The notes under the pieces are model-generated. The model was not told where the DNA came from. It made no database searches and was given only the letters and a program-made list of their open reading frames with translations. Below are positions 2,445 to 40,693 of a stretch of 64,000 nt of DNA, piece after piece. The stretch's first letter is position 1. Every line of letters starts with the position of its first letter. This stretch comes from a bacterium. Its GTDB lineage: Bacteria > Patescibacteriota > Minisyncoccia > Phycocordibacterales > SBAW01. The translations under genes were made by a program, and so were the position numbers. The stretch is taken from contig JBAXFJ010000001.1 of the NCBI GenBank assembly GCA_037139975.1, positions 171,017 through 235,016 of the forward strand, written 5' to 3'.

Positions 2445-5400
2445 ATGTTGTTGGATGTTGTATATAAAGCCGCTCTTCTTTTTTGTGTTCCTGGCCTGGT
2501 GCGCTCTAGGGCGCGTTATCCACACAAAAGTTTTTCTTACGCGTTTGCATACGCAAAGAGTGCTAGGATTTGGGTAATGCGTACACGCACTACATTTCTA
2601 CTTCTTGCTTTTTTCCTTGTGATTGGTTTTTCATCTTTATTTACAAATCAAGGAAGGGGGATAGGTGCCGCTTTGTATAGCGGTCTCATTGAAACCCACA
2701 TTGCGCAAGCTGCTGGCAGTGTCACAAACGATGCTGGCAATACGTGGACCAACTATTGTTATGGTCTCATTGAAGATGAGATGTGCACCGTTAGTCCGCT
2801 GGCTTGGGAAAACTGGGAAACATGCAACGCTGACGGCACCATCACTGCTAATGTTGGCTGGAATTATGTGGGGGTGCCACAAGGTAGTGGTGGTTGGTAT
2901 CTGCAGTTGAATTCTGGGGACTTGCCTGTCTCTGGCAATTTAGGTGTTGCAGACAATCACACTTTCGCAGGACTTTCGCCTAATCGATCATACAATATTT
3001 ATTTTGATGTTTTTCTTGGTCCGCGTTGGAACTCAGGCTGGTGGGCTACCGATAATTTTCCTGGTGGTGCAGCCTACAGAAACCATCTCAACACTGGCCC
3101 TTGTGTTTCCTCTCCCACAGGCTCCATCAGCAGCCTCACCAACCCCTGCCAAATAGCCAGCGGCCAAACCACCTGCACGCCGCTCTTTAACTGGAACACA
3201 GCAAACACCAACGGCACAGTCGTAACCAATATTGTCGGTAGTGCGCCATATGCCGACGAGACAGCCTATACTTGGTATATTCCTGCTAACGGTTCTGGCG
3301 GGCACGGTGCCGCGCTTCCTGCTGGTAATTACACTATTAAGTTATATGGACAAAATTCGGCTGGCGGCTGGGTGCTTCTTGATTCAAAGCCGACTACGGT
3401 TGTTTCAGCCCCAACAGGCACACTCACCACCCCAAGCTCCTGTTATATTCCGAGCGGTCAGACTACGTGCACACCGCTCTTTGATTGGCAAACCGCGCAA
3501 ACCAATGGCGTAGTTCAGCTTAATATCGTCAATGCAAACGGCGCTCAGCCGTATCCCACCGAATCGTTGTACGTCGCCAACCGAGGCACCGCAATCACTG
3601 GTACTCCTGGTACGGCGCTTCCTGTTGGTACCTATACCGTTAAGTTGTACGGCCAAAATTCAGCAGGCACCTGGGTGCTTCTTGACTCTAAGCAGGTCAC
3701 GATTGTTCCTTTCCCAACCGCAACTCTCTCCGTTTCTCCAACCTCGGTTGCATACAACGGTCAAGCAACACTCACTTGGAGTTCAACCAACGCCACCTCC
3801 TGCACCGCAGGGGGGCCGTGGTCTAACGCAAGCGCCCCGCTTGGGGGTACTGGATCGACGGGGGCGCTTATTGCAAATGCTACGTATACGCTCCAATGTA
3901 CGGGTCCTGGAGGTACCACACCGCTCCAGTCGGTGACGGTTTCGATCAATAACCGAACTCCTGCGGGGTATCTGGATTCTGCCAGCTGTTCGGCTTTGAG
4001 TGGTTGGGTAGTGGATCCAGACAGCGCCAACAGCATCGCGAGTGTGCGTATCTTCGACGGCCCTTCGAGCACAGGCACACTCATTGGCACGTACCCCACA
4101 AGCGTGTTCCGAGGTGACGTTACCGAACCGAACACAGGCATTGCTGGTCTTGTTGCTGGCAATCATGGATTCTCTGTGCCAACGCCGGCAAGCCTCCTCG
4201 GGGGCGCGACTCACAGCATCTATGCTTATGGGGTGGACATTCAAACGGGCGGATTGACGAATTTGGGCTCGAGTCCAAAAAGTATCACCTGCCCGACCCC
4301 AACCGCAACTCTCTCCGTTTCTCCAACCTCAATTGCATACAACGGCCAAGCAACACTCACTTGGAGCTCAACTAACGCCACCTCCTGCACCGCAGGGGGG
4401 CCGTGGTCTAACGCAAGCGCACCGCTTGGGGGTAGTGGATCGACGGGGGCGCTTATTGCAAACGCGACGTATACGCTCCAATGTACGGGCAATGGCCAAA
4501 CATCTGCACTGCAGTCAGTGACGGTTGGGGTGGGAGCCGCTCCGGTAAATGGTGTGTGTGCTGCAACACACTACAGCTGTAGTGCTGGTACGAGTGCTAC
4601 TACTGTGGAAGGAGCAAGCACCTACACGTGGAGTTGTGTTGGCCTTAACGCGGGGACCACCGCCTCGTGTTCCGAGGCGAAGCCAGCGCCAACCGCAACG
4701 CTCGCTGTTTCTCCAACCTCGGTTGCATACAACGGTCAAGCAACACTCACTTGGAGTTCAACCAACGCCACCTCCTGCACCGCAGGGGGGCCGTGGTCTA
4801 ACGCAAGCGCCCCGCTTGGGGGTACTGGATCGACGGGGGCGCTTATTGCAAACGCGACGTATACGCTCCAATGTACGGGAAATGGTCAAACGTCCGCGCT
4901 CCAGTCAGTGACGGTTACCACGAGTCCTCCCCTGTCTTGTACTTCACTGTGGGGCGGTGCAGCCATCGCCAATGGCGACTCCGTGACCGCATATCACACA
5001 GCTTCGACCATCTATCCTGCCACCTGCGCCCAAGAAACGCGTGCTTGCGGCAACGGAGTATTGAGTGGAAGTTACACAAACCAGACGTGCGCGGTCTTGC
5101 AGCCTGATCTCATCGCCTCCACCGTCATCCCAAACACTGCGGTGGCTGGTAGCGCTGTCACGCTCTCTGCAACCGTCACTAACCGAGGCACCGCAAGCAC
5201 TGGCGCAAGCTTCTCGAACTTCTTCCAAGTCGCCACTGCCACAAACGGTGGCGGCACAGTCACCGACCTCGCTCCCGCAGTGATGTCTGCACTTGCGGCA
5301 AATGCATCAGGCGCCACAGCGAAGCCCTACACCTTCACCACCGCAGGCACCTACTCGGTCCGCGCCTGTGCTGACAAGTCTTCTGCTACTGACCTTGGCG

Positions 5401-7784
5401 CCATCGCCGAGTCAGATGAAACCAACAACTGTGGGACATGGACTAATGTAGTGGTTACCGCTGCTCCTGCGTCTGACCTCACCACCTCAGCTGCCCAACC
5501 AACCGCAGCGGTAGTTGGCAACGCTGTCACGCTCTCTGCAACCGTCACTAACCGAGGCACCGCAAGCACTGGCGCAAGCTTCTCGAACTTCTTCCAAGTC
5601 GCCACTGCCACAAACGGTGGCGGCACAGTCACAGACCTTGCTCCTGCGGTGATGTCTGCACTTGCGGCAAATGCATCAGGCGCCACAGCCAAGTCTTACA
5701 CCTTTACTGCTGCAGGCACCTACTCGGTCCGCGCCTGTGCCGATAAGTCTTCTTCTGCGGACCCTGGCGCCATCGCCGAGTCAGACGAAACCAACAACTG
5801 TGGGACATGGACTGATGTAGTGATTGATTATCCTGGAGCAACCTCTGCCCTGCATGGGCAAGGGTGTGTGCTCCCTGTGGGGGGAGGCACATGCAACCTC
5901 ACTGCATGGTGGAGCATCACCGGTCTTACTGCAGGTGAGACGGTTGACGTGAGTGTCACGGGGCCTGGTCTTGCAATACGCACCTTTAAAAATATTCCTG
6001 CAGACTCAACCAAACTCACTCGCGCAACACGCAGAAGTCTTCTTGCTGCGGTGCTGGGTGGTTTTGGCGCTACTCAAGATTCGACAACACCTTTTATCCA
6101 GGCAGTTGGCACTGCAGGGACGTTCAATCTGACACTTACCCGGCACGCCAACCAATCTGCACTAGGTTCGTTTGCACTCTTTGCTTGTCCTCCAGGAACA
6201 ACTAATGTCAACGAAGTTTGCACAGGCGCTCCTGACTTGATAGCGGGTGCCACAGTGCCAACTGCTGCGGTTGCAGGCATCATCACCACGCTTTCGGGAG
6301 TGATCACCAACCAGGGCGGCGCAAGCACCGGCACTACGTTCACGAGCCTGTTTGAAATAAACTCCAACAACAATCCAACAAGTTTCCATAGTATTGAAGC
6401 AACCCAGACCTACGTCACCCCTGCACTTGCGGTGGGTGGTACAAACACCGCAACAACGCCTTACAGTTTCCCCGCGTCTGGTACCTACTATGTGCGCCTC
6501 TGTGCAGACACAAACGACAGCAATGTGGGTACCATCACCGAAGCAAACGCTTTGGGTACTGGTGAGACCAACAACTGCGGCCCTTGGACCCCTGTGATTG
6601 TGACCGCTCCTGACCTGATTGCGGGCGGCGCTTCTCCGGTGTCGGCGACCGCTGGCGCGTCCATATTCCTCAGTGCACCAATCTCCAACCAAGGCACCGC
6701 AGACGTCACTCAAAACTTCTCTAACTTCTTTCAGGTGGCGGTTGATGTGAACGATGCCACCACCATTACCGATCTTGCTCCTACCACCATGACTCCCTTG
6801 TCAAAAGGCGCTACACGACTTGCAGCACGACCATATTCATTTGGAGCAGGCACCTACTACGTCCGTGTGTGTGCCGACAAAACGTCACGCAACGATGGGG
6901 GAGTAATCACCGAGTCAAATGCTACCGACGCATCCTCGATTGATACAGGCGAGACCAACAACTGCGGCAGCTGGGCAAAGACGGTGGTGTGCGCGGCGGG
7001 CAAAGTCTATTTTGGCGGCTCGTGTCTCTTTACTCCACCAGGGTGTCCTCTTGATACAGTGAATGATGCTGGGCTGTGTTGCCCAGTGGGACAGGTCAAT
7101 GGTGGTGGTGTATGCGTTCCTTCATGCACAAACGACTATGTGCTTGTGAATAACCAGTGCGTACCCGCGGTATGTTCTGGCACTACCTCGTGTGTTTCGG
7201 GTCCAAACATCTGCGGTATGACGAACCCAGGCACCTATGACCCAGCCACGTGCACGTGCGTTGCCACACCGCCTGCAGATTCTTTGTGCCATATATGCAC
7301 ACCAAACGCCGCGTGTGCCGCAAGTGCTGCAAACAACTGTGGTTCAAGTAGCGGTACTTGCAATGCGGCAGGCAGCTTCTGCGCTCCACCCGCAGACAAC
7401 GTGTCGTGTTCTGTGGGGGCGGTCTGTAACCCAGGACAAGTGGGCACGCCGCCAAACTGCAGCTACCCTGGTTCTACTGGTTCAGTAAATGGTTCAACTT
7501 TCGCTCCAACAATCACACTAAACGCACCTGCGCGTGTTCGTGCGGGAGGCACTGCAACGCTCACGTGGTCTGCAACGGGCTCTACTCAATGTGTTCTGAC
7601 AGGTCCCCACCTGCCAAGTGCGACGGTTACAGTAACTGGTGATGCAAACAGCAATGTTGCAAGTCAACAAGTCGCCGCGACTATCCTGGGACAAAGTGTA
7701 TACACAGTCAGGTGCTCAGGCCTTGGAGGCTCTGTTTCAGTGAGCAGGACGGTAAACCTTATTCCGCAAGTCATCGAACAATAA
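2445..7784 (+). CDS. giant secreted surface protein with CARDB-like and Ig-like tandem repeats and a Cys-rich C-terminal region (adhesin-like)
   Basis: 1779 aa. A signal/TM segment (MRTRTTFLLLAFFLVIGFSSLF) suggests the real start may be the ATG at 2577. Contains 2 N-terminal ~95-aa repeats, 3 (+1 C-terminal) Ig-like 'ATLTWSSTNATSCTAGGPW...YTLQCTG' modules, 4 CARDB-type modules (NRGTASTG...ESDETNNCG) and a ~150-aa cysteine-rich block. Gly/Thr/Ser/Asn-rich composition. Confidence 0.85.
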   Translation: MLLDVVYKAALLFCVPGLVRSRARYPHKSFSYAFAYAKSARIWVMRTRTTFLLLAFFLVIGFSSLFTNQGRGIGAALYSGLIETHIAQAAGSVTNDAGNTWTNYCYGLIEDEMCTVSPLAWENWETCNADGTITANVGWNYVGVPQGSGGWYLQLNSGDLPVSGNLGVADNHTFAGLSPNRSYNIYFDVFLGPRWNSGWWATDNFPGGAAYRNHLNTGPCVSSPTGSISSLTNPCQIASGQTTCTPLFNWNTANTNGTVVTNIVGSAPYADETAYTWYIPANGSGGHGAALPAGNYTIKLYGQNSAGGWVLLDSKPTTVVSAPTGTLTTPSSCYIPSGQTTCTPLFDWQTAQTNGVVQLNIVNANGAQPYPTESLYVANRGTAITGTPGTALPVGTYTVKLYGQNSAGTWVLLDSKQVTIVPFPTATLSVSPTSVAYNGQATLTWSSTNATSCTAGGPWSNASAPLGGTGSTGALIANATYTLQCTGPGGTTPLQSVTVSINNRTPAGYLDSASCSALSGWVVDPDSANSIASVRIFDGPSSTGTLIGTYPTSVFRGDVTEPNTGIAGLVAGNHGFSVPTPASLLGGATHSIYAYGVDIQTGGLTNLGSSPKSITCPTPTATLSVSPTSIAYNGQATLTWSSTNATSCTAGGPWSNASAPLGGSGSTGALIANATYTLQCTGNGQTSALQSVTVGVGAAPVNGVCAATHYSCSAGTSATTVEGASTYTWSCVGLNAGTTASCSEAKPAPTATLAVSPTSVAYNGQATLTWSSTNATSCTAGGPWSNASAPLGGTGSTGALIANATYTLQCTGNGQTSALQSVTVTTSPPLSCTSLWGGAAIANGDSVTAYHTASTIYPATCAQETRACGNGVLSGSYTNQTCAVLQPDLIASTVIPNTAVAGSAVTLSATVTNRGTASTGASFSNFFQVATATNGGGTVTDLAPAVMSALAANASGATAKPYTFTTAGTYSVRACADKSSATDLGAIAESDETNNCGTWTNVVVTAAPASDLTTSAAQPTAAVVGNAVTLSATVTNRGTASTGASFSNFFQVATATNGGGTVTDLAPAVMSALAANASGATAKSYTFTAAGTYSVRACADKSSSADPGAIAESDETNNCGTWTDVVIDYPGATSALHGQGCVLPVGGGTCNLTAWWSITGLTAGETVDVSVTGPGLAIRTFKNIPADSTKLTRATRRSLLAAVLGGFGATQDSTTPFIQAVGTAGTFNLTLTRHANQSALGSFALFACPPGTTNVNEVCTGAPDLIAGATVPTAAVAGIITTLSGVITNQGGASTGTTFTSLFEINSNNNPTSFHSIEATQTYVTPALAVGGTNTATTPYSFPASGTYYVRLCADTNDSNVGTITEANALGTGETNNCGPWTPVIVTAPDLIAGGASPVSATAGASIFLSAPISNQGTADVTQNFSNFFQVAVDVNDATTITDLAPTTMTPLSKGATRLAARPYSFGAGTYYVRVCADKTSRNDGGVITESNATDASSIDTGETNNCGSWAKTVVCAAGKVYFGGSCLFTPPGCPLDTVNDAGLCCPVGQVNGGGVCVPSCTNDYVLVNNQCVPAVCSGTTSCVSGPNICGMTNPGTYDPATCTCVATPPADSLCHICTPNAACAASAANNCGSSSGTCNAAGSFCAPPADNVSCSVGAVCNPGQVGTPPNCSYPGSTGSVNGSTFAPTITLNAPARVRAGGTATLTWSATGSTQCVLTGPHLPSATVTVTGDANSNVASQQVAATILGQSVYTVRCSGLGGSVSVSRTVNLIPQVIEQ
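3713..4915 (+). repeat. three near-identical ~225-bp intragenic direct repeats (about 3713-3940, 4295-4525, 4685-4915)
   Basis: Nucleotide copies beginning ccaaccgcaactctctccgtttctccaacctc... are almost identical at DNA level with irregular spacing (582 and 390 bp). They encode the Ig-like PTATLSVSPTS...LQCTG module. Confidence 0.85.
5095..5820 (+). repeat. two tandem near-identical ~360-bp copies of the CARDB-module coding sequence (about 5095-5460 and 5461-5820), followed by two diverged copies (about 6230-6990)
   Basis: The string ctgtcacgctctctgcaaccgtcactaaccgaggcaccgcaagcactggcgcaagcttctcgaacttcttccaagtcgccactgccacaaacggtggcggcacagtcac occurs in both copies. Confidence 0.85.
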
Positions 7785-7851: not shown

Positions 7852-9564
7852 ATGCAGGCGCATGAGGAAAGTCTTGCCACATTTTTACGTGACGCGGGGA
7901 TGGTGTCGCGCTCGCAGTTGGAGTCGCTTGTGCGGCGAGTGACGGTCTCGGGCGAAGCGTTTCACCACGTGCTTTCCACTTCAGGCGCGCTCAGTGAAGA
8001 CGAGGTGCGTCGCGCACTTTCAAAAGTGCTTGGAGTGCCTTTTGTCTCACTTACTACAGAATCGATCTCGCCGGAGGCGTTGGTGCATATACCCGAACCT
8101 TTTGCACGGTCTCATGGTGTGGTTGCATACCAGATGCACCGCGAGCGCGGCGTTCCTGGAGGGATCCTCCTTGAGGTTGCGTTGCTTGATATGGATGCGC
8201 ATGCGTCACTGCAGCAGCTCGACTTGCCCTACACGGTGCGCGTGCGTCTCACCGACAGGGCGTCGCTCACTCGTGCATTGCTGCTCTATCAAAAGGTGCT
8301 CAAAGATTCTTTTTCGTCTCAGGCGCAGGAGCCGCTTGCAGTGGTGGATGCATTGCTCGAACGAGGTCTTTACAGCAAGGCCGAAGCGATTCATCTGTCG
8401 CCAACCGAGAATGGTTTTTTGGCGCACTACCGTATTGGTGGTGAATTGTATGAAGCACTAACGCTCTCGTTTGAGGTTGGGCAAGTTGTGTTGCAAAGAG
8501 TTGCTACGCTTGCGCATGTGATTGTTGGCACACAAACCCCTCAAGAAGGCAGTTTCAAAATCGCTGCAGGGGATGAAGAAGTGTCTGTTCGTGCCTCGCT
8601 GCTCCCGACTGTGGCGGGCGATGCGCTCACCCTGCATCTGTTACGTGCGGGAGTGGGTGCTGCGGGGCACACGCTCGAGTCTCTTGGTTTTCATGGCGCA
8701 GGACTTGCGCGCCTGAGGCATGCGCTTCATGCCCGTTCCGGGTTGGTGCTGGTTTCTGGGGGCGACCATGCTGGCGTCACCACACTTCTCTATACACTGC
8801 TTGATACGCTTGGTGGGTATACGCACACTACCATCACCGTTGAGGGTGGTGTGTCAGTACGCCTTCCCTATGCGCTGCAAACTGAAGCAGGGGGTGATGG
8901 CGGTGTATCAATGGCGACAGGGGTCCGTGCAGCGCTCTTGCAAGACCCTGACGTGCTCATGATTTCTCAGATTGCTGATCGAGAAACCGCCTTGCTTGCG
9001 GTCTCTGCTGCGCAGAGGGGTGTTTTAGTAGTTGCGGGGGTTGCTGCCACATCAGCTTCGGTTGGTATTGCCAACCTTCTGTCCTTGGGCGTTTCTTCGA
9101 CCATGTTGGCGAGCTCTCTTGCAGTGTCTGTGGGGACGAACTTGGTGCGGGCGCTGTGTCCGGCGTGCAAGAGCGGCGCCGAAGCATATAAGTTGTCGCG
9201 TGCCGAAATGGCTTCGCTGGAAGGCGAGGTAGATTTCAGTCGCATATTGTCTGCGCTGAAGGAGACGCGCAGTGTAACAGAAGACGCGCCGTGGAAGACA
9301 GTATCTTTTATACATCCCAACACGTGTGATGCGTGCCAAGATGGGTACCAAGGGTACTGCGGTGTGCAAGAAGTGTTTGTGTCTTCGCGTGCGATACAAC
9401 AGAGTGTTGTTGCATATGCTGCATATCCAGACGATGCGGTGTTCGCATATGCGATAGAAACAGCCGCTCGAGCCGATGGGGCGATCACCCTGATTGAAGA
9501 CGGTGTATACAAGGCAGCCCAAGGCCGTACGAGCCTAGAGGAGGTGCTTTCGCTCGAAGCGTAG
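7852..9564 (+). CDS. PilB/GspE-family (type II/IV secretion 'ATPase') paralog with degenerate catalytic motifs; predicted pseudo-ATPase
   Basis: 570 aa. GspE_N-like N-domain, a conserved core (RASLLPTVAGDALTLHLL; ITVEGGVSVRLPY) and a C-terminal tetracysteine CPAC...CDAC motif. Walker A reads GGDHAGVTT (Lys->Val), Walker B/Asp box reads DPDVLMISQIAD (Glu->Gln), and the His box reads RGVLVVAGVAATSA (His lost). Confidence 0.75.
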   Translation: MQAHEESLATFLRDAGMVSRSQLESLVRRVTVSGEAFHHVLSTSGALSEDEVRRALSKVLGVPFVSLTTESISPEALVHIPEPFARSHGVVAYQMHRERGVPGGILLEVALLDMDAHASLQQLDLPYTVRVRLTDRASLTRALLLYQKVLKDSFSSQAQEPLAVVDALLERGLYSKAEAIHLSPTENGFLAHYRIGGELYEALTLSFEVGQVVLQRVATLAHVIVGTQTPQEGSFKIAAGDEEVSVRASLLPTVAGDALTLHLLRAGVGAAGHTLESLGFHGAGLARLRHALHARSGLVLVSGGDHAGVTTLLYTLLDTLGGYTHTTITVEGGVSVRLPYALQTEAGGDGGVSMATGVRAALLQDPDVLMISQIADRETALLAVSAAQRGVLVVAGVAATSASVGIANLLSLGVSSTMLASSLAVSVGTNLVRALCPACKSGAEAYKLSRAEMASLEGEVDFSRILSALKETRSVTEDAPWKTVSFIHPNTCDACQDGYQGYCGVQEVFVSSRAIQQSVVAYAAYPDDAVFAYAIETAARADGAITLIEDGVYKAAQGRTSLEEVLSLEA

Positions 9565-11729: not shown

Positions 11730-13514
11730 ATGGCGACGGTATACAGGCTACGGGAAAGGGTACACGCAGAGCTTATTCCCGATTTGTTGCACACACGCGG
11801 GGTGTTGAGCGAGGAGGATGTAGGCAAGTTTCTTGCGCCTGATTTTATTCGTGACTCGCACGACCCGTTTTTGCTGCCCGACATGGGCAAGGCGGTCGAG
11901 CGCGTCCTGTTTGCGCGGAGCAGTGGCGAAAAAGTTGCGGTGTGGAGCGACTACGACTGCGACGGCATCCCCGGCGGCGTGCTGTTGACCGAATTTTTGC
12001 GCGCGGTGGGTCTTAGTGTTCGGCACTATATTCCGCACCGTCATGCCGAGGGTTATGGTATGAACGAAACAGGTATCCAAACTCTTGTTGAAGAAGGCGT
12101 CACGCTCATCGTCACTGTGGACTTGGGCACCACCGAGCACGGGCCGATTGCGTTTGCCAAAGAGAAGGGAATTGATGTGATTGTGACTGATCACCACGTC
12201 GTTTTGTCGGCTCCAGAAGAAAGCCTTCCACAAAGGTCCTCGGATCTCCCTCGCTCGTCTTCGGACGAGCTTCGGGCCAGACCATTTGTTTCAGACTTTC
12301 TTCTTGTGCCTATTCTTCCCAAAGATGCGTTTGCCGTCATAAATCCAAAAAGACCTGACAGCACATATCCATTTGATGGCCTGTGTGGAGCAGGAGTTGC
12401 GTGGAAATTGGTGCAGGGCATCTTGTTGAAGTTGCGGATAGGTGGCACTTTTTCTGAATATCCAGAAGGACGGGAAAAGTGGCTGCTTGACCTAGTTGGC
12501 ATGGCCACGCTTTCGGACATGGTGCCGCTCATTGATGAAAACCGGATGCTCGCGCGTTGTGGACTCATTGTGATGCGCAAGGCACGCAGGCCTGGGCTCG
12601 CTGCGCTTTTGTCGCTGTTGCGCATCAGTCCACCATCAATTACCGAGGATGACATCGGGTTTATGATCGCCCCGCGTATCAACGCCGCTTCGCGCATGGG
12701 TTCGCCCGAGAGCGCGGCGCTGCTTTTGCGCAGCGAGACGCTCGAGGAGGCAAAGGGGCACGCGCGAGTGCTCAATAGTATTAATGATGAACGCAAAAGC
12801 GCCGTTGCAGTGACGGTTAAAGAAGTCAACAAAAGACTGGAAGCGTCCGGTCTGTCGGAAAGCCCTGTCATCGTGATGGGTAGTACTGGTTGGCGGCCAG
12901 GCATTTTGGGGCTGGTCGCCAATTCGCTGATGCAAAAACATGGTAAACCGGTCTTTTTGTGGGGCAGGGAAGGGGGTGAGCTTCTGCGCGGTTCGTGCCG
13001 CTCGAGCGGTGAGGTGTCGGTGGTTGACCTGATGCACGGCGCAGTAGACGTCTTTGACCACTGTGGTGGTCACGCGGCATCGGGCGGCTTCTCGCTCGAC
13101 GAGGGGCGCGCACACGAGCTCTTGCCGCGGCTCGTCGCCTCCTATCAAGCGCTGATGGGCACTGCCGCTCAAGTAGTAAAAGAAGTAGTGGTCGACCGCG
13201 AACTCGACTTGGCTGAGACGAGCCGCGCACACAGAGAATTAAAACAACTCGCGCCTTTTGGGGTACAAAACGAAAAGCCGCTGTTTCTTTTCCCCAATAT
13301 AGACATCGGCCCCGTGCGCACCTTTGGCAAAAATACTGACCATCTTGACATCAAATTGGGCAAGAGCGGCATGCAGGTGCCCGGCATCGCATTCTTTTCG
13401 ACTCCTGAATCATTTCAAAAAACTCCAACAGTTGGCACAAAAGCTGACATCGTGGGTCACGTCGAGACCGACTGGCGCGGCGGTCCTCGCATCCGTGTAG
13501 TCGATGTGCTGTAG
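11730..13514 (+). CDS. recJ: single-stranded-DNA-specific exonuclease RecJ
   Basis: 594 aa; DHH-family motifs DYDCDG and TDHH, plus a DHHA1-type C-terminal region. Confidence 0.85.
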   Translation: MATVYRLRERVHAELIPDLLHTRGVLSEEDVGKFLAPDFIRDSHDPFLLPDMGKAVERVLFARSSGEKVAVWSDYDCDGIPGGVLLTEFLRAVGLSVRHYIPHRHAEGYGMNETGIQTLVEEGVTLIVTVDLGTTEHGPIAFAKEKGIDVIVTDHHVVLSAPEESLPQRSSDLPRSSSDELRARPFVSDFLLVPILPKDAFAVINPKRPDSTYPFDGLCGAGVAWKLVQGILLKLRIGGTFSEYPEGREKWLLDLVGMATLSDMVPLIDENRMLARCGLIVMRKARRPGLAALLSLLRISPPSITEDDIGFMIAPRINAASRMGSPESAALLLRSETLEEAKGHARVLNSINDERKSAVAVTVKEVNKRLEASGLSESPVIVMGSTGWRPGILGLVANSLMQKHGKPVFLWGREGGELLRGSCRSSGEVSVVDLMHGAVDVFDHCGGHAASGGFSLDEGRAHELLPRLVASYQALMGTAAQVVKEVVVDRELDLAETSRAHRELKQLAPFGVQNEKPLFLFPNIDIGPVRTFGKNTDHLDIKLGKSGMQVPGIAFFSTPESFQKTPTVGTKADIVGHVETDWRGGPRIRVVDVL

Positions 13515-13562
13515 AAAAATTTTTCGCGTTATACTGCAAGCACTGAATACAGAGAAGTTTTT

Positions 13563-14300
13563 ATGCCCAAAGAAACAAACGAGAAAGAAAAAGTTTTGAT
13601 ATTTGCCGATGGGGCATCAAAAGGCAACCCGGGTCGGGGTGGTTGGGGAGCCTTGATTTCGGGTAATGGAGAAGTGGTTGAGTTGGGTGGTGCCGAAGCG
13701 CACACAACAAACAATAGGATGGAATTAACCGCGGCGCTGTCTGCGCTTGAATATGTAGGCGGTCGTGTGGTGAGGGCTGTTGTTGTGCACACCGACTCGT
13801 CGTATGTGATAAACGGCATCACGAAGTGGGTCGCGGGCTGGCAGCGTAGTGGCTGGCTGACTAAAGAAAAGAAACCGGTTTTGAATCGAGACTTGTGGGA
13901 AAAATTAGCAGCAACAGTTGAAAGTTTAAAAAACAGCGGGGCAAAAATCTCTTGGCAGCATGTGGGAGGGCATGTGGGGGTGGCGGGCAACGAGCGCGTT
14001 GACGAAATCGCTTCTAGTTTTGCTGAAGGTGCGCCCAGTAAACTTTTTACCGGTAAGCGGAGTGATTACACACACGAGATAGAAAATATTTCACATAATC
14101 CAGAAAAAGCCTCGGGCAAAACAGCAAACAAAACTCACTCACGTGCAAAAGCGTATTCCTATGTCTCAATGGTTGACGGCACAGTGGTGACACACAAGAC
14201 GTGGGGTGAGTGCGAGGCGCGAGTCAAAGGCAAGATGGCTCGGTTCAAAAAGGCGACATCTCCGAGTGAAGAAGCAGCGATTATCAAAGAATTTTCATAA
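13563..14300 (+). CDS. rnhA: ribonuclease HI with ~90-aa C-terminal extension
   Basis: 245 aa; DGASKGNPGRGGWG, TNNRMEL and HTDSSYV catalytic motifs. The C-terminal tail has no known domain. Confidence 0.85.
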   Translation: MPKETNEKEKVLIFADGASKGNPGRGGWGALISGNGEVVELGGAEAHTTNNRMELTAALSALEYVGGRVVRAVVVHTDSSYVINGITKWVAGWQRSGWLTKEKKPVLNRDLWEKLAATVESLKNSGAKISWQHVGGHVGVAGNERVDEIASSFAEGAPSKLFTGKRSDYTHEIENISHNPEKASGKTANKTHSRAKAYSYVSMVDGTVVTHKTWGECEARVKGKMARFKKATSPSEEAAIIKEFS

Positions 14301-14315
14301 ATAAACACTAAGGCC

Positions 14316-15677
14316 ATGAAAAGAGGCTGGCTCGTGGTCGCGGTGATCGTGTATGTGGCGCTGTTTGCTGTGCGTTTCCACATTCTTTTGCAACATGAAA
14401 AGGCGCAGACATTGTCCAGTTTTGTGGGGCAAAAGGTGGTGGTGGTTGGGCGTGTTGCCGACGACCCAGACAAACGCGAGACCTCGTTGCACCTCACAGT
14501 TGAGGTTGAAAAAGTTGATGGAGCGCCTGCACGTGGTGGGTTGCTCGCGCTGGTGCCGCGCGAAAGTCCTGTGGTGTATGGCGACGAGGTCGAAGTGAGT
14601 GGCAAGCTGGTAGCACCGCAGAACTTCGAGACCGACACGGGCCACATCTTTGACTACCCAAGTTACCTGCGCGTGCGCGGTATCTCTGTGGAAGTTCCCC
14701 GGGCAACACTCGTGCGCCGAGTTCCCGTGGGTCCCTCGCTGCAGGGCGTACTCTTTTCTTTGAAGCATGCGTTCGAGAGCTCGCTCGACCGGCTCTTTTT
14801 TGAGCCCCAAAACGCGCTCCTGCAAGGCATTTTGCTTGGCGAGCGGCGCGGCATCCCCAAAGACCTCACCCAAGCGTTTGTAGAAAGCGGTTTGGTGCAC
14901 GTAGTGGTGCTGTCGGGCTACAACATCTCGATTGTGTCTGAGGGTGTTTTCCGCGCGCTCGCGTTCCTACCGCGCACGCTCAGCTTCGCGACCGGCGGGT
15001 TCACCATGGTTCTCTTTGCGCTCCTGGTGGGTGGCGGGGCGACCACCATTCGCGCGCTCATCATGGCGGGCATCGCGCTCCTGGCGCGCTATATGCACCG
15101 CTCGGCCGTCGCCCTGCGCTCGCTCGTTGTTGCCGCCGCCGCAATGGCGCTGTGGAACCCGCTCGTGGTTTTATATGACCCGTCGTTTATTTTGAGCGTC
15201 TTGGCAACCTTTGGGCTCATCACCCTCTCCCCTTGGGTCGAGGGATACATCAATCGCATAAAACTTTTGCAGCACCCGCGCCTTGCGGGCGCTCGCTCGA
15301 TAGCCGCTTCAACCATCGCCGTCGAGATTTTCGTTTTGCCCGTGCTGCTCTATTTTTCTGGCGTTCTCTCGTTTCTTTCCGTTCCGGCAAACGTCCTCGC
15401 GCTTCCTATTGTGCCTGCGGCAATGCTGTTGGGGTTCGTCTCTGGCCTGCTTGGGTTTGTCCCGAGCGCCCTTGGCGCCACGCTTGCATTCCTCCCCACG
15501 CTTGGGACCGATCTGCTCCTGCGTTGGATGCTGTTGGTCACCACCATTGTCGCTGCCGTCCCATTTGGTGTCGCCATCATCCCCGAATTCTCTGGCTGGC
15601 TGGTCCTCGCCTGCTACATTCCACTCACCTGGTTCGCCGTGGGGAAGTATAGAAAGAGTGACGGCGTGATAGAATGA
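14316..15677 (+). CDS. comEC: ComEC/Rec2 competence channel, N-terminal part only (DUF4131/OB region plus polytopic competence domain, no MBL domain)
   Basis: 453 aa; one N-terminal TM, then a soluble region, then a multi-TM region with LVHVVVLSGYNIS resembling the ComEC competence-domain signature. The expected C-terminal metallo-beta-lactamase domain is encoded separately at 17454. Confidence 0.7.
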   Translation: MKRGWLVVAVIVYVALFAVRFHILLQHEKAQTLSSFVGQKVVVVGRVADDPDKRETSLHLTVEVEKVDGAPARGGLLALVPRESPVVYGDEVEVSGKLVAPQNFETDTGHIFDYPSYLRVRGISVEVPRATLVRRVPVGPSLQGVLFSLKHAFESSLDRLFFEPQNALLQGILLGERRGIPKDLTQAFVESGLVHVVVLSGYNISIVSEGVFRALAFLPRTLSFATGGFTMVLFALLVGGGATTIRALIMAGIALLARYMHRSAVALRSLVVAAAAMALWNPLVVLYDPSFILSVLATFGLITLSPWVEGYINRIKLLQHPRLAGARSIAASTIAVEIFVLPVLLYFSGVLSFLSVPANVLALPIVPAAMLLGFVSGLLGFVPSALGATLAFLPTLGTDLLLRWMLLVTTIVAAVPFGVAIIPEFSGWLVLACYIPLTWFAVGKYRKSDGVIE

Positions 15678-15789
15678 AGAACATGACAGCCTTTGGAGAA
15701 GTAAGTGATATTACTAATATCAATACCTATTCGCCAAGTTTTGAGTTTCTCAAAACAGAGCCTGACTTGTACTCTGTTTCAGATTTAAT

Positions 15790-16404
15790 CTAATTACTCA
15801 CCTCTGCAAACCGCTCTTCTATCACGCCCCAATTCAGGTTTTTAAAGAAAGCGTCGATGTATTTTGTTTTTCCGGCGGCACCATGGTCGAGCAGGTAGGC
15901 GTGCTCCCACACATCGAGAGCCAAGATAATGGGCAGTGTCGCAAAGTGGCCTTGGTGTTGCTCGCCTGCAAACCCCGCGAGAAACTGTTTTGCTTGTGGG
16001 TCCCAGTAAAGTATCGCCCAGCCCGGGCCGCGCATATTTCCGATGGCTTTGAGGTAGGGCTCGATATGCTCGGCTTTCATGTATTCTTTTTCAAGTTGCT
16101 TGCTCAAGGGATTTTCTGCCTCAAGCGCTTTTGCCCCACCTTCAAATTGTGCAAAGTACAGTTCGTGCAGGCGCATGCCATCGAATTCGAACGAGCGGCG
16201 GCGAATGAGTTCAGAAAGCGCGTGTGCGTTCTTCCCCGCCTGACCGGCCGGCAGGTCCATGTCTTTTGCATACTCGGGCAGCAGCGCCGATATTGCATTA
16301 AAATTTTTGACATATCCGGCATAGAGGCCCAAGTGTTCTTCCACTGACTTGGTCGAGATGCCGTCGAGCTCAGGGATAGTAAACTTTTTTTCTTCGTACG
16401 TCAT
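15790..16404 (-). CDS. Fe/Mn superoxide dismutase-family protein
   Basis: 204 aa; DVWEHAYLLDH C-terminal metal-ligand motif and conserved Tyr (YAGYV). The N-terminal HH-KHH box is reduced to a single His, so it is a divergent member. Confidence 0.75.
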   Translation of the reverse strand: MTYEEKKFTIPELDGISTKSVEEHLGLYAGYVKNFNAISALLPEYAKDMDLPAGQAGKNAHALSELIRRRSFEFDGMRLHELYFAQFEGGAKALEAENPLSKQLEKEYMKAEHIEPYLKAIGNMRGPGWAILYWDPQAKQFLAGFAGEQHQGHFATLPIILALDVWEHAYLLDHGAAGKTKYIDAFFKNLNWGVIEERFAEVSN

Positions 16405-16520
16405 GTTGATTCAGAAAGTTGTTATGATTTGATAATTTAATGTATGTAACTATAGCATAGCAGGCAGTTGTGTTTCTGGTATGAATTGTTACCCTTTAGT
16501 CGGAAGTAGGGGGATTTCCC

Positions 16521-17375
16521 ATGAGCAAAACAAGAAGTCCGGCAGCTGGAACTCCACTGTCGTGGCCTATCATCGAGCGGTTGTCGGCCATTCACATTCT
16601 CGGATTATTCGGGGTGTGGTACCTAATCGCTGTTGCGCACTCTGCACGAACCGTGGCGTTCGCGTTGCTATGGTTTTTTCTATGTCACTTGGCAACAACC
16701 ACGGGGCCGCATCGGTTGTATGCGCACGGTGCGTATGCCGCCACAAAGATGCTTGAGGTGTTTCTGCTCCTCTTTTCAGCGGCCACGTTTCAAGGGCCGG
16801 CGATGTGGTGGGCAGCAATGCACCAAAGGCATCATGCGCACAGCGATACCGACAGAGACCCATACAGCGTTGTTCACGGTTTCTGGTGGGCGCACGTGGG
16901 ATGGATGTTGCGTGTACCACAAAGCCCAAAAGAGTTAGTGAGGTTCCGGAAAAACCAACTCATTCAACTCCAGGCGAAGTACTACGAATGGGTAGCGCCG
17001 ACCATGGCGTTTCTCCTACCGGCTCTCATCGCGTCGCTGTGGGGTGACTTCTGGGGAGGGCTTCTGGTTGCAGGGTTCTTGCGACTGGTCGTGCAATTTC
17101 ACCTCACGTGGATAATCAACTCATGGGCGCACTCGTTTGGTACTCGTCGCTATGGAGGAACTGGCTCTGCGCGTACCAACTGGTGGCTCGCTATCCCCAC
17201 CGTTGGGGAGAGTCTCCATGAGCGGCACCATCTGGCCGAACAAGCCGCCTGGTTTAGTACGTACTGGTACGACATAGACCCTGGAGGTTTCTTTATTCGT
17301 TGCTGCGTTTGGGTTGGGCTCGCTTCCAATCCAAAAGCAGTTTCGGAAGAAGAAGTGTACGCAAAAGCGCGGTAA
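16521..17375 (+). CDS. membrane fatty-acid desaturase (stearoyl-CoA/acyl-lipid delta-9 desaturase family)
   Basis: 284 aa; three His boxes (HRLYAH, HQRHHAHSD, HERHH) and NSWAH, with four predicted TM segments. Confidence 0.8.
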   Translation: MSKTRSPAAGTPLSWPIIERLSAIHILGLFGVWYLIAVAHSARTVAFALLWFFLCHLATTTGPHRLYAHGAYAATKMLEVFLLLFSAATFQGPAMWWAAMHQRHHAHSDTDRDPYSVVHGFWWAHVGWMLRVPQSPKELVRFRKNQLIQLQAKYYEWVAPTMAFLLPALIASLWGDFWGGLLVAGFLRLVVQFHLTWIINSWAHSFGTRRYGGTGSARTNWWLAIPTVGESLHERHHLAEQAAWFSTYWYDIDPGGFFIRCCVWVGLASNPKAVSEEEVYAKAR

Positions 17376-17453
17376 ACCCATGTATCTAATCGAACGCCCC
17401 CGCAGCAATGCTCGGGGCATTTTTTTACCCTATACTAAAAACACTAAACTCGA

Positions 17454-18344
17454 ATGGATTTTTTGAAAAAATACCAAAGATACGCGCCACTCGTTTTGCT
17501 TGGCGCTCTCGCAGTTTTTTGCGCTGTGGTGTGGGTGCGGGTGGGGGCAGAGACGCCAAGTGGCCTACTCAAGGTTGCGGTGCTCGATGTGGGCCAAGGC
17601 GACGCCATATATATCGAGTCGCCTACGGGCGAGCAGCTGCTCATCGATGGCGGACCCGATGGCTCGCTCTTGCGCCAGCTGTCCAAAATCATGCCATTGT
17701 TTGACCGCTCCATCGACGTGGCGCTCGAGACACACCCACACGCCGACCACGTTATGGGTTTTATTGACTTGTTCAAGCGCTACTCGGTGGGCGCGTTCAT
17801 CGAGCCGGGCGTTGTCTATAAGGGGACAGAGGTGGATGCACTTGAGCAAGAAATTGATGATCAAAAAATTCCACGTTACTTGGCTCGGCGGGGAATGGTT
17901 GTTGATTTGGGTGGCGGGGCAGTGCTCACCATTCTTTGGCCGCAAAGTGACGTAACGCATATTCCCGAAAGCCATGTGCACGAAGGCAATGTGGTTGCGC
18001 GCCTGACCTATGGCAAAACATCTGTTTTGTTGATGGGTGACGCGCCCAAAGACGTCGAGGCAAAACTCTTGGCCGAAAAGGATGCGCTTGCAAAAGAGAG
18101 TCTCAAAAGTGATGTGCTCAAGGTTGGTCACCACGGTTCACGCACTTCCTCAGGGGACGCTTTCATCGCCGTTGTGCACCCAGCGTTTGCCGCCATCTCG
18201 GTGGGTGCCCACAATATGTACAAGTTGCCCAACCAAGAACCGATAGACTCGCTTACTAAGCTAGGCGCGCACGTGTTCCGTACCGACCAAGTGGGCACTA
18301 TTTTATTTGAATCCGATGGTCAAACTTTTTGGAAAATGCAGTAG
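17454..18344 (+). CDS. ComEC C-terminal-type metallo-beta-lactamase domain protein (stand-alone)
   Basis: 296 aa; N-terminal TM/signal, DVGQGDAIYIE, HPHADH and KVGHHGSRTS motifs typical of the ComEC MBL nuclease domain. Confidence 0.75.
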   Translation: MDFLKKYQRYAPLVLLGALAVFCAVVWVRVGAETPSGLLKVAVLDVGQGDAIYIESPTGEQLLIDGGPDGSLLRQLSKIMPLFDRSIDVALETHPHADHVMGFIDLFKRYSVGAFIEPGVVYKGTEVDALEQEIDDQKIPRYLARRGMVVDLGGGAVLTILWPQSDVTHIPESHVHEGNVVARLTYGKTSVLLMGDAPKDVEAKLLAEKDALAKESLKSDVLKVGHHGSRTSSGDAFIAVVHPAFAAISVGAHNMYKLPNQEPIDSLTKLGAHVFRTDQVGTILFESDGQTFWKMQ

Positions 18345-18399
18345 CAAAGTAGACAACTGCATTGACATGTTGCATAGAAAGCGTAACATCAGAAACTAG

Positions 18400-18650
18400 A
18401 ACTGTTGGTAGAGGGGAACCGTTGTGAGTGACTCGGCCACTAATCGTCCTCCAGTCGGAGGTTATAAAACTCCGGGTTTGGGGGCTCATAAGCCTTCGCT
18501 CGCGTATCGAGAGACGCCTAAATCAAGTTGGCCTCCCGCAGCAACACTTTCCAGTTTTTCTCCTTGTCGGGATTGTGCAGGGTGTGATGCAGACACAATG
18601 CTGCATTGCTTTGTTAAGGTGTGATGCCAACGAACAAAAACCGCCGCTCT
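18400..18650 (+). ncRNA. candidate small RNA or structured UTR (unassigned)
   Basis: 380-nt ORF-poor gap. A sigma70-like ttgaca-N17-taacat promoter lies at ~18364-18395, followed by hairpins (cctccagtcggagg) and an intrinsic terminator at 18651-18687. No match to an RNA family that I can recognise. Confidence 0.15.
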
Positions 18651-18687
18651 TGATCAAATGATCAGGAAGCGGCGTTTTCTTTTTTAC
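18651..18687. terminator. bidirectional intrinsic terminator
   Basis: ccgccgct...agcggcg stem flanked by A-run and T-run. Serves rpmB on the - strand and any + strand transcript. Confidence 0.6.
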
Positions 18688-18724
18688 AAATATCCAGGAC
18701 CGTCCTAGATATTTTGTAGTTATT

Positions 18725-18967
18725 TTATATAATTCCAGCTTTCAGAAGAGTTTTGTAGGCGCCGTTCTTGGCAATTGTCTTGATAGCTTGGGTCGAGAGG
18801 GTGAGGGTGATTGTTTTGTTGATTTCAGGGACAAAAATGCGCTTCTTCTGCAGGTTTGGCTGCTTGCGGACTTTGCCGGTTGGGTTGTATTTGGTCGCGC
18901 GGACGCGGTTGCTGTATCCGCCAGCAACTTTCGAGGTTTTTTGTGTGATTGGGCAAATTTTGGCCAT
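18725..18967 (-). CDS. rpmB: 50S ribosomal protein L28
   Basis: 80 aa; MAKICPITQK...RRFLPNLQ-type L28 sequence. Confidence 0.9.
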   Translation of the reverse strand: MAKICPITQKTSKVAGGYSNRVRATKYNPTGKVRKQPNLQKKRIFVPEINKTITLTLSTQAIKTIAKNGAYKTLLKAGII

Positions 18968-19041
18968 ATATTCTTGCGTGCTTTGCTATGGTATCATGAA
19001 TTTGCGAATGCGCAAACTATGCGCATAGCCGTACAACCCTT

Positions 19042-19683
19042 ATGGATATAGTCTTTTCAATCATTATTCTCATTATTTCAGTCATCCTGCATGAGGTGGC
19101 CCATGGCTACATGGCCAACTGGCTCGGCGACCCCACAGCGCGCCTGGCTGGAAGGCTCACCCTCAACCCAACAAGCCACATCGACCCAACCGGCTCGGTC
19201 TTTTTGCCGTTCATCCTGTGGGCAGCTCAGAATTTCTCGCCGCATCCTGTCCTCATTGGCTATGCCAAGCCCGTGCCCTACAACCCCCACAACCTTCCGG
19301 GTAAATATGACGAGGCACTCGTGGCGGGCGCAGGGCCAGCAACCAACCTCTTTCTCGCATTGTTTTTTGGGCTGCTCATTCGTTTTGGTGGCGTTTCAAT
19401 GACCCCCGCTCTGTTTGCTGCATTGGGGACTATTGTCGCCACAAACTTGGTACTGGCACTGTTCAATCTCATACCCATTCCACCACTCGATGGTTCAAAG
19501 GTCTTGACGGTGCTTTTGCCGGGTGGAGTGGGGAGGGCGTATGCACACTTTCGTGCAAACTTTGAGCGAATGGGTGTCTTCTCAGGAACGCTGCTCATCC
19601 TGCTCTGTTTTTACTTCCGTTCACCATTTTTCTCGGACTTTCTGGCGTTTGCGTTTCGCCTTTTGACAGGGGTGAGCGCATAG
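19042..19683 (+). CDS. site-2 protease family zinc metalloprotease (peptidase M50B)
   Basis: 213 aa; HEVAHGY (HExxH) in TM1, LNPxxHIDPxG motif, multiple TMs. Confidence 0.7.
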
Positions 19684-39280: not shown

Positions 39281-40693
39281 ATGCAATCAACTATACATTT
39301 TTTTGGGGGGGCGGGGACGGTGACAGGTTCAAACTTTTTACTTGATACGGGAAATAAGAAAATTTTAATAGACTGTGGGCTTTTTCAAGGCGACCATGTC
39401 GCCGAGGTGGGGAACTGGGAGCCATTTCCCTTTGATCCAAAAGAGATTTCAGTACTCATCAATACCCACGCGCACATTGACCACATCGGGCGCATCCCCA
39501 AGTTGGTAAAAGAGGGCTTCAGGGGCAAAATAATTTCAACCGAGGCGACCAAGGCTTTAGCGCTCCCCATGCTGATGGACGCAATGGCGCTGTCGAGTCG
39601 TACTGCCGAGCATTTGGGCAAAGAACCGCTCTATGAACAAAAGGATATTGACCAGGCGATGCGTCAATGGGAGGGAATTTCTTATCACCAGACCCAAGAC
39701 ATGGGTGACGGAGTGTCGATGCAGTTTCTCGATTCGGGGCACATTTTGGGTTCAGCGATGGCCGAATTTACCCGCCAGGATGGTGGGCAGGCTCGGAAAG
39801 TTGTGTTCACGGGCGACCTGGGCGGCGGCAACTCGCCGCTCTTGCCTTTGGCCGAAGACCCACAAGGGGTCAACTATCTGTTGATGGAAAGTGTCTATGG
39901 CGACCGAGTGCAGAGCGATGATGCGCTTGCGCGAAAGAGTAAGCTCGAAGACGTCATTGAAGACACTGCGGCGCGTGGTGGCACGCTGTTGATACCTGCG
40001 TTCTCGACCGAGCGCACCCAAGACTTGTTGTTTGATATTCGTGAATTGATGGTGGGCAAACGTGTTCCCAGTATGCCCGTTTACTTGGACTCGCCCTTGG
40101 CCGAGAAGATAACCGCGGCGTACCTGGCCCACCCTCAATATTTCAGCAAAGAAATTCAAGCGCGAATAAAAAGTGGCGAACACATTTTCTCATTTACCGA
40201 ATTACATTTTGTTGAGTCGTCTGCTGAATCAGAAAAAATCAATGCCACACATGGGGCAAAAATCATCATCGCGGGTTCAGGTATGAGTAATGGTGGCCGT
40301 GTCCAGGCGCACGAGAAGGTAGTGCTGCCTGACGCAAACTCGACCCTGCTCATTGTGGGTTACCAGGCGGCAGGGAGCATGGGGCGCCGCCTGGCCGAGG
40401 GGGTGAAGTCTGTGTCGATACGTGGGGCGCATAGGCAGCCAAGCGAGACGGTGCACGTTGCCTGCCGCGTAGAGACACTCTATGGCTATTCGGCGCACAT
40501 GGACGGCGAGCAGCTGCTCGAGTTTGCCAATAAAGTGAGCGAGGGGGCGCACGACAGTGGTACGCTCAAAGAAGTATTTGTCGTGATGGGTGAGCCAGCT
40601 TCAGCAGGCTTCCTCGCGCAGCGCATTCGTGACTACCTCAGCATCAAAGCAACCACCCCGCACGCAGGTGAAAAAGCAGAAATAGAATTTTAA
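39281..40693 (+). CDS. beta-CASP family metallo-beta-lactamase RNA-processing nuclease (RNase J/CPSF-like)
   Basis: 470 aa; HAHIDHIG (HxHxDH), and beta-CASP region motifs D...H...H downstream. Confidence 0.75.
   Translation: MQSTIHFFGGAGTVTGSNFLLDTGNKKILIDCGLFQGDHVAEVGNWEPFPFDPKEISVLINTHAHIDHIGRIPKLVKEGFRGKIISTEATKALALPMLMDAMALSSRTAEHLGKEPLYEQKDIDQAMRQWEGISYHQTQDMGDGVSMQFLDSGHILGSAMAEFTRQDGGQARKVVFTGDLGGGNSPLLPLAEDPQGVNYLLMESVYGDRVQSDDALARKSKLEDVIEDTAARGGTLLIPAFSTERTQDLLFDIRELMVGKRVPSMPVYLDSPLAEKITAAYLAHPQYFSKEIQARIKSGEHIFSFTELHFVESSAESEKINATHGAKIIIAGSGMSNGGRVQAHEKVVLPDANSTLLIVGYQAAGSMGRRLAEGVKSVSIRGAHRQPSETVHVACRVETLYGYSAHMDGEQLLEFANKVSEGAHDSGTLKEVFVVMGEPASAGFLAQRIRDYLSIKATTPHAGEKAEIEF

Follow-up and report, generated by a model that had tools for sequence, protein, structure and literature searches.

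We analysed a stretch of 64,000 nucleotides, hereafter the window, from a genome of the Patescibacteria (GTDB lineage Patescibacteriota; Minisyncoccia; Phycocordibacterales; SBAW01; GenBank assembly GCA_037139975.1, contig JBAXFJ010000001.1, positions 171,017 to 235,016), and all coordinates below are those of the window. We consider it probable that the window carries the standard ComEC DNA-uptake protein of Patescibacteria, encoded as two polypeptides, a membrane channel and a membrane-anchored nuclease of the metallo-beta-lactamase (MBL) fold, which work as a non-covalent two-subunit machine. The original prediction described a comEC gene split into two open reading frames (ORFs) that lie 1.8 kb apart on the same strand, the second one having an N-terminal transmembrane (TM) segment of its own, with genes for a superoxide dismutase (SOD) and a desaturase between them. 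This description was accurate: the two ORFs are found exactly at 14316-15677 and 17454-18344, their separation and orientation are correct, the MBL ORF has a single hydrophobic helix according to both a hydropathy scan and an AlphaFold2 model, and both intervening genes are present, the SOD gene converging on the channel gene and diverging from that of the desaturase. The region comprises the following features.

14316..15677, plus strand: ComEC channel subunit, 453 amino acids (aa), Pfam domains DUF4131 and Competence, TIGR00361 positions 83-398.
15790..16404, minus strand: Fe/Mn-type SOD, 204 aa, Sod_Fe_C match at 3e-17 and a match to 1coj.
16521..17375, plus strand: delta-9-type membrane fatty-acid desaturase, 284 aa, assigned by histidine boxes in the translation and by named homologues.
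17392..17426, plus strand: G+C-rich hairpin followed by a T7 run, terminator-like, located after the desaturase gene; identified in the sequence, fold of -13.8 kcal/mol.
17454..18344, plus strand: ComEC nuclease subunit (TM helix and MBL domain), 296 aa, Lactamase_B match, TIGR00361 positions 410-663.

The two proteins jointly hold all classical elements of ComEC, with intact catalytic residues and topology signals. Together, the two ORFs cover the 663-position TIGR00361 model (ComEC/Rec2) end to end without overlap (83-398 and 410-663, the latter at 1.1e-29), and each half misses the 190-bit cut-off of this model (83.5 and 103.2 bits). The system is ComEC-like but falls outside the single-chain architecture of the TIGR00361 equivalog, which places three domains on one polypeptide. 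The channel product contains the Competence domain (PF03772, E = 2.4e-43, profile positions 1-267 of 270) and the OB-fold DNA-binding domain DUF4131 (PF13567, E = 2e-16, profile positions 30-155 of 165), and its alignment to the solved full-length ComEC 30bt_A spans residues 144-456 of that structure. It is predicted to consist of one N-terminal TM helix (corresponding to TM3 of full-length ComEC), the OB fold, and then the competence domain through TM10, and it ends in a short basic tail, GKYRKSDGVIE, assigned to the cytoplasmic side. The best 120 homologues of the channel are all 419-528 aa long and carry DUF4131 and Competence only, with no MBL domain; the nearest of them is 78% identical. 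An N-terminal hairpin of ~45 residues, equivalent to TM1-TM2, is missing from the window protein and is present in ~60% of these 120 homologues, whose lengths are bimodal (about 443-465 aa versus 487-514 aa). This truncation is real in the studied genome, because directly upstream of the ORF one finds an in-frame stop as well as the RNase H gene, and it constitutes a second trimming of peripheral helices besides the cut between TM10 and TM11 described below.

The nuclease product matches Lactamase_B in Pfam at 5.5e-15. Its hydropathy peak is at residues 13-31, and the AlphaFold2 model (pLDDT 94.4) places a helix at residues 11-33 ahead of the MBL fold. A fold search of the PDB with this model gave the ComEC beta-lactamase-like domain 9ic4 as the best match (E = 4e-25, template modelling score 0.84), the next one being at 5e-15, and a profile of 30 homologues matched residues 511-792 of 30bt_A at E = 3e-63 and 9ic4 at 3e-62, with generic MBL enzymes at 1e-6 or worse. 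The nuclease ORF encodes an authentic C-terminal domain of ComEC, which comprises the membrane helix equivalent to TM11, a short linker and the MBL domain. The 30 aligned homologues share the MBL motif residues D65, H94, D98, H99, D196, H226 and H227 without exception, which argues that the nuclease is probably an active enzyme under selection. Since the N-terminus is basic ahead of the helix (MDFLKKYQRY), the positive-inside rule predicts that the MBL domain faces outward, as in ComEC.

Stand-alone proteins prevail among the relatives of the nuclease. The best 120 database homologues are all single-part proteins of 250-329 aa, the nearest being 80% identical. An exhaustive search of 50%-identity cluster representatives gave a similar picture, as about 137 of the 150 best relatives are 268-347 aa long; long proteins of 581-834 aa account for ten more, and the match is C-terminal in nine of them and near the N-terminus in one (P0290). 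Another long protein, the fused P0283 (817 aa), is encoded next to comEA and acyl-CoA metabolism genes, a context foreign to the candidate phyla radiation (CPR), as the Patescibacteria are also called. Homologues of both halves originate from Patescibacteria or Paceibacterota wherever the source names them. Automated JGI names already call many of the nuclease-type proteins of ~290 aa ComEC, and the COG database presumably treats the two ComEC halves as separate COGs.

To place the window among its relatives, we classified 86 loci, namely 80 genome loci fetched by similarity to the query, five metagenome-contig loci and the window, with hidden Markov models built for this analysis (individual loci are given as L numbers). 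In 41 of the 86 loci, all from metagenome-assembled genomes (MAGs) of the Patescibacteria type and including the window and two loci of one genome, the halves are separate same-strand genes, whereas the 23 fused loci all belong to Chloroflexota-labelled genomes; this is the comparison of fused and split relatives that had been proposed along with the original prediction. Two further split calls come from Chloroflexota-labelled genomes (L043, and L085 with a possible frameshift). The nuclease was found without a channel gene in 20 loci, and in 14 of these the contig ends close by or the label is not Patescibacteria. An independent full-length comEC beside each half, which had been named as speaking against a split gene, was absent from the Patescibacteria loci within up to 10 kb on each side of the nuclease gene, less at contig ends. 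Judged from these gene layouts, two-gene ComEC appears to be the standard, inherited arrangement in Patescibacteria. The description of the locus as an ancestral split DNA-uptake machine thus stands at the level of this lineage, in which all sampled two-part loci are split. Previous analysis reported fused ComEC in only six CPR genomes, the MBL fusion being essentially absent from CPR (Meheust et al. 2019, PMC6744442).

The two proteins have also evolved in parallel. Their pairwise distances correlate across 38 split loci (r = 0.74), a value that was reached in none of 2000 Mantel permutations. The correlation rules out independent paralogy or transfer of the halves; it is no proof of physical interaction, because shared vertical descent produces it for any two genes of the same genomes. 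Stand-alone ComEC-type nucleases were also observed in a few genomes with other labels, namely L043 (1445-3754 and 9923-10867), L062, L069 and L073. These labels are Anaerolineales, Chthonomonadales, Fervidifonticultor and one 'Methanomicrobiales archaeon' (possibly a mis-binned contig), and the proteins are nested among fused Chloroflexota proteins in the nuclease-domain tree, an exploratory neighbour-joining tree with midpoint rooting and no bootstrap support.

The position of the break is conserved. When eight CPR loci are aligned with six fused Chloroflexota proteins, the CPR genes all break at one position: the stops and starts of the eight pairs fall in a short basic loop that follows the final hydrophobic helix of the competence domain and precedes the helix ahead of the MBL domain. 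By this alignment, the break corresponds to the cytoplasmic TM10-TM11 loop of full-length ComEC, separating TM1-10 from TM11 and the MBL domain, and it leaves the membrane topology of both parts unchanged. Full-length ComEC, as resolved by cryo-electron microscopy, contains eleven TM helices, TM10 and TM11 being separated by a short helix on the cytoplasmic side; these last two TM helices lie at the periphery of the channel, TM11 is absent from the density of one protomer, and the MBL domain sits on a flexible linker and is oriented by a small interface with the OB fold (PMC13539106). Given the peripheral position of TM10 and TM11, the mobility of TM11 and the flexible linker, the covalent link at the CPR break appears structurally dispensable.

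The genes located between the halves have separate histories. The best solved relative of the SOD is the Aquifex Fe-SOD 1coj (3e-23, alignment residues 12-201); the His/His/Asp/His metal ligands are aligned with those of 1coj, and the EEHL, LHELYF and DVWEHAY positions are conserved, while the N-terminal SOD domain of Pfam was undetected in the product at the threshold used. The SOD gene is located between the halves on the opposite strand in the window and in 21 other loci, and directly upstream of the nuclease gene in five further loci on truncated contigs, being kept at this position in relatives down to ~37% nuclease identity. The loci with SOD in the gap constitute one large clade of the nuclease tree, with L009 (adjacent halves), L029 (DedA-like gene in the gap) and L033 (unlinked halves) as internal exceptions, which suggests a single insertion of SOD into the gap, in the ancestor of a large Paceibacteria clade. 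The desaturase has the motifs HRLYAH, HQRHH, NSWAH and HERHH in its translation, and its homologues at 37-53% identity (nearest 53%) carry PF00487 and are named stearoyl-CoA delta-9 desaturase. The window protein itself has no Pfam match at E <= 0.01 and scores 47.6 bits against the NCBIfam DesA model, whose cut-off is 400 bits. This gene was found in none of the other 85 loci surveyed. It is present in L087 (nuclease ~67% identical) in the order desaturase-nuclease-rpmB with no SOD gene upstream; another near relative on a short contig, L086, was checked as well, and its contig ends inside the SOD gene. The closest desaturase homologue on a long contig (L088:8001-8879, 53%) is located beside an ATP-citrate-lyase-like pair, a LexA-like peptidase and a translesion-polymerase gene, an unrelated context which indicates that the desaturase is not generally linked to comEC. 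We infer that the desaturase is a later and narrower addition in a small subclade that includes this genome.

The other possibility raised in the original prediction, a comEC interrupted by insertion of an oxygen-linked gene pair, does not agree with these data. SOD and desaturase are not a unit, as SOD is in the gap of 21 further loci and the desaturase occurs only in the window and L087, there without SOD upstream. Moreover, the halves abut or overlap in nine Patescibacteria loci, with gaps of -26 to +30 bp (for instance, an overlap of 4 bp in L034; the gap of -379 bp called in one of the nine, L016, reflects an over-extended MBL ORF call), and thus the split predates any insert. A recent insertion or a pseudogene was rejected on the basis of the comparative loci, including those with adjacent halves and no insert. 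The suggested check of base composition was not decisive. Compared with 48 long ORFs of the window, both the SOD gene (G+C content at third codon positions, GC3, of 0.59; codon distance 0.11) and the MBL gene (0.60; 0.08) are typical, and the desaturase gene is only mildly atypical, with a codon usage cosine distance of 0.18 versus 0.13 +/- 0.04 for genes of similar size, only near the 90th percentile; composition gives no strong sign of foreign origin for the inserts. Other genes are found in the same gap, including a DedA/VTT-domain membrane protein on the opposite strand (L029:1070-1660(-), L048:9260-9919(-) and L066:9189-9779(-)) and an RNase III gene (L015:7128-7844(+)). The gap between the ComEC genes has captured unrelated genes repeatedly. 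In the scenario that we propose, the two ComEC genes would have been adjacent at first, an Fe/Mn SOD gene would then have been inserted on the opposite strand in the ancestor of the large Paceibacteria clade, and the desaturase gene would have been added last in the small subclade, the inserts being passengers and not the cause of the split. Beyond a sign of oxygen exposure, SOD and desaturase matter little.

In the proposed two-subunit ComEC, the channel and nuclease subunits would associate in the membrane, the OB fold would bind incoming duplex DNA, and the MBL nuclease, supplied in trans, would degrade one strand while the competence domain would conduct the other. In a cultivated Saccharibacterium, comEC is required for natural transformation (PMC10633639); this comEC deletion is the only genetic work on CPR that we found. 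Several points weigh against such a machine or limit its generality. The binding of the two subunits to each other is something that we infer rather than observe. The small OB-MBL interface is described as weak (PMC13539106), and in vitro nuclease activity was higher with the OB fold on the same chain (PMC12455585); hence separation could cost activity. As the SOD gene is inserted between the halves, they do not form a single simple operon, and stoichiometric co-expression is not guaranteed. In six nuclease-only loci, no channel gene is present in the retrieved 4.7-9.9 kb upstream, or downstream to 10 kb or the contig end. The choice of the 80 genome loci by similarity to the query left Microgenomatia and confirmed Saccharimonadia outside the sample, some taxon labels of MAGs are as deposited and may be unreliable, and the same caution extends to the exploratory tree described above.

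The six unlinked loci would also fit a nuclease that is independent of the channel and serves as a membrane-anchored surface DNase, degrading DNA of the environment or of a host for nucleotide salvage, which would leave the channel without a dedicated nuclease, like the ComEC of many other bacteria. Separate transcription units in the window, with an opposite-strand SOD gene and a terminator-like hairpin before the MBL gene, agree with such a role, as does the view that CPR bacteria scavenge DNA, most of them being unable to make nucleotides (PMC6744442). In addition, about half of ComECs lack a nuclease domain, and the disposal of the second strand in these cases is unknown according to Silale et al. 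(PMC8579336). We nevertheless regard this explanation as unlikely. The correlated distances of the two proteins are at odds with it, the two genes are same-strand neighbours in every locus where both halves were found, and the helix equivalent to TM11 is kept in 30 homologues, with no obvious role for a free nuclease beyond anchoring; moreover, without the rest of ComEC, the nuclease domain showed poor DNA binding in vitro (PMC12455585). Far less credible still is a recent break of an intact comEC by a sod-desaturase cassette, or an assembly or frameshift artefact, which we consider very improbable. The presence of two oxygen-related genes between the halves and the somewhat atypical codon usage of the desaturase gene would suit a cassette; however, dozens of independent assemblies show this split, insert-free pairs among them, neither ORF is damaged and their ends and catalytic residues are conserved, the SOD gene has typical codon usage and G+C content and is in place in distant relatives, and the desaturase and SOD differ in their phylogenetic distribution.

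The origin of the two-gene state in CPR has two possible explanations. It may be the original, pre-fusion form of ComEC, from which fused forms came about later when the stop codon separating two adjacent genes was lost. The adjacent CPR pair with the 4-bp overlap could be fused by a single mutation, and a competence-only ancestor with several later gains of Lactamase_B was reconstructed by Pimentel and Zhang (PMC6299819). The nuclease tree cleanly separates CPR and Chloroflexota and cannot be rooted with these data, which leaves room for such an origin. On the other hand, many phyla have fused forms, among them Chloroflexota, whose proteins are the nearest relatives of both halves outside CPR, and the stand-alone nucleases of L043, L062 and L073, nested among fused Chloroflexota proteins, suggest recurrent fission. 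Recent bacterial phylogenies place CPR inside Terrabacteria near Chloroflexota. With this placement, one fission is more parsimonious than many fusions. Because fused forms are widespread and CPR are placed near Chloroflexota, we favour, with reasonable confidence, a fission in the CPR stem over a retained pre-fusion state, to which we give a smaller but appreciable chance.

The TATACT box located ~17 nt before the MBL start codon and the hairpin at 17392..17426, whose folding is only modestly stronger than that of shuffled sequences (z = -1.7), weakly hint at a promoter of its own for the nuclease gene; a scan for promoter and terminator consensus sequences gave counts no higher than in shuffled sequence and did not pick up this hairpin. 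A more speculative and, in our estimate, rather doubtful idea is that the split let Patescibacteria regulate and deploy the nuclease apart from the channel. Its gene would have a promoter of its own, which most of the clade would use divergently for sod as well, the protein would double as a cell-surface DNase that supplies nucleotide salvage in cells that cannot make nucleotides, and the gap would be a promoter-bearing hot spot. If true, the repeated capture of SOD, DedA, RNase III and desaturase genes would point to such a hot spot and not to neutral drift.

The split comEC locus has conserved neighbours on both sides.

11730-13514, plus strand: recJ, conserved upstream neighbour, Pfam match.
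13563-14300, plus strand: RNase H, conserved upstream neighbour, Pfam match.
18725-18967, minus strand: ribosomal protein L28 (rpmB), conserved downstream neighbour, Pfam match and relatives' loci.
19042-19683, plus strand: M50 peptidase, conserved downstream neighbour, Pfam match and relatives' loci.

Among the 36 Patescibacteria loci with enough upstream sequence, recJ is located upstream in 22 and RNase H in 18. The SOD clade has a conserved block in the order recJ, RNase H, channel, sod(-), nuclease, rpmB(-) and M50 peptidase, which is seen in the window (11730-19683) and in L001, L003, L005-L007, L010-L012, L022, L028, L030 and L042. The single-stranded DNA exonuclease RecJ and RNase H are encoded beside the uptake genes where the non-CPR relative L089 has comEA. 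Gene packing in this block can be extreme: the 3' end of the SOD gene overlaps that of the channel gene convergently by up to ~75 bp in several relatives (L003:7381-7427, L086:3432-3487, and L006, L010, L011, L019, L030 and L051), and the start codons of the SOD and nuclease genes are as little as 26 bp apart. The window is packed more loosely, with 112 bp between the SOD and channel genes and the desaturase insert. Its RNase H has 245 aa, with the catalytic domain at residues 9-153 followed by a C-terminal tail of ~90 aa, and the orthologue in L005 has a weak match to Cauli_VI, a family of hybrid-binding domains, which suggests an RNase HI with a hybrid-binding domain at its C-terminal end. 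Elsewhere in the window, N-terminal sequences only were considered for a 560-aa ORF that resembles a large serine recombinase (61103-62785, minus strand), a 470-aa MBL/beta-CASP-like ORF that would be a second MBL-fold gene (39281-40693, plus strand), and a PilB-like ATPase gene upstream of tpi-pgk (7852-9564, plus strand); in addition, there is a giant ORF of 1779 aa (2445-7784, plus strand).

That CPR lack the ComEC-MBL fusion had been published before; the companion nuclease gene and the break point are added here. ComECs with and without Lactamase_B were catalogued and interpreted as gains and losses by Pimentel and Zhang, and separately encoded domains are undiscussed in the passages of this paper that were retrieved (PMC6299819). 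In the open-access literature, we found no description of a two-gene ComEC, of the TM10/TM11 break point or of the conserved sod insertion. The removal of the non-transforming strand where ComEC lacks the nuclease domain is presented as an open question by Silale et al. 2021 (PMC8579336). For Patescibacteria, our results suggest an answer: the nuclease domain would not be missing, being supplied as a separate membrane-anchored subunit. Domain surveys restricted to competence-domain proteins will score such a two-gene ComEC as a domain loss, and for CPR annotation, we propose that a 'MBL fold metallo-hydrolase' of ~290 aa encoded near comEC be treated as competence machinery. The conserved TM10-TM11 break can be regarded as a natural experiment, which fits the peripheral, mobile TM11 and the loosely docked nuclease of the cryo-electron microscopy structure, and it suggests a split-protein design for ComEC biochemistry.

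Three known systems bear on the one described here. The classical single-chain ComEC/Rec2 (Bacillus subtilis; Neomoorella carbonis, PDB 30bt) has the same domain content and order, and the window proteins align to it co-linearly; however, in the window this chain is cut in the TM10-TM11 loop into two encoded proteins with non-contiguous genes, the channel is devoid of the TM1-TM2 hairpin, and the neighbours are recJ and RNase H instead of comEA (compare L089). The 'DC-profile' ComEC without Lactamase_B (Pimentel and Zhang 2018) and the CPR family of Meheust et al. 2019 are of the same DUF4131 plus Competence type as the window channel. There the MBL domain is scored as lost or absent, whereas in the window it is encoded nearby as a TM-anchored protein. 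The trans nuclease of the window is an orthologue of the ComEC C-terminal domain itself, whereas EndA of Streptococcus pneumoniae, which degrades the non-transforming strand, belongs to a different, non-MBL nuclease family. Both are separate membrane nucleases in trans to ComEC, EndA being placed at the outer face of the membrane (PMC8579336). According to the same paper, the ComEC of S. pneumoniae itself retains an MBL-like domain, in which metal-binding residues are substituted and which may be inactive.

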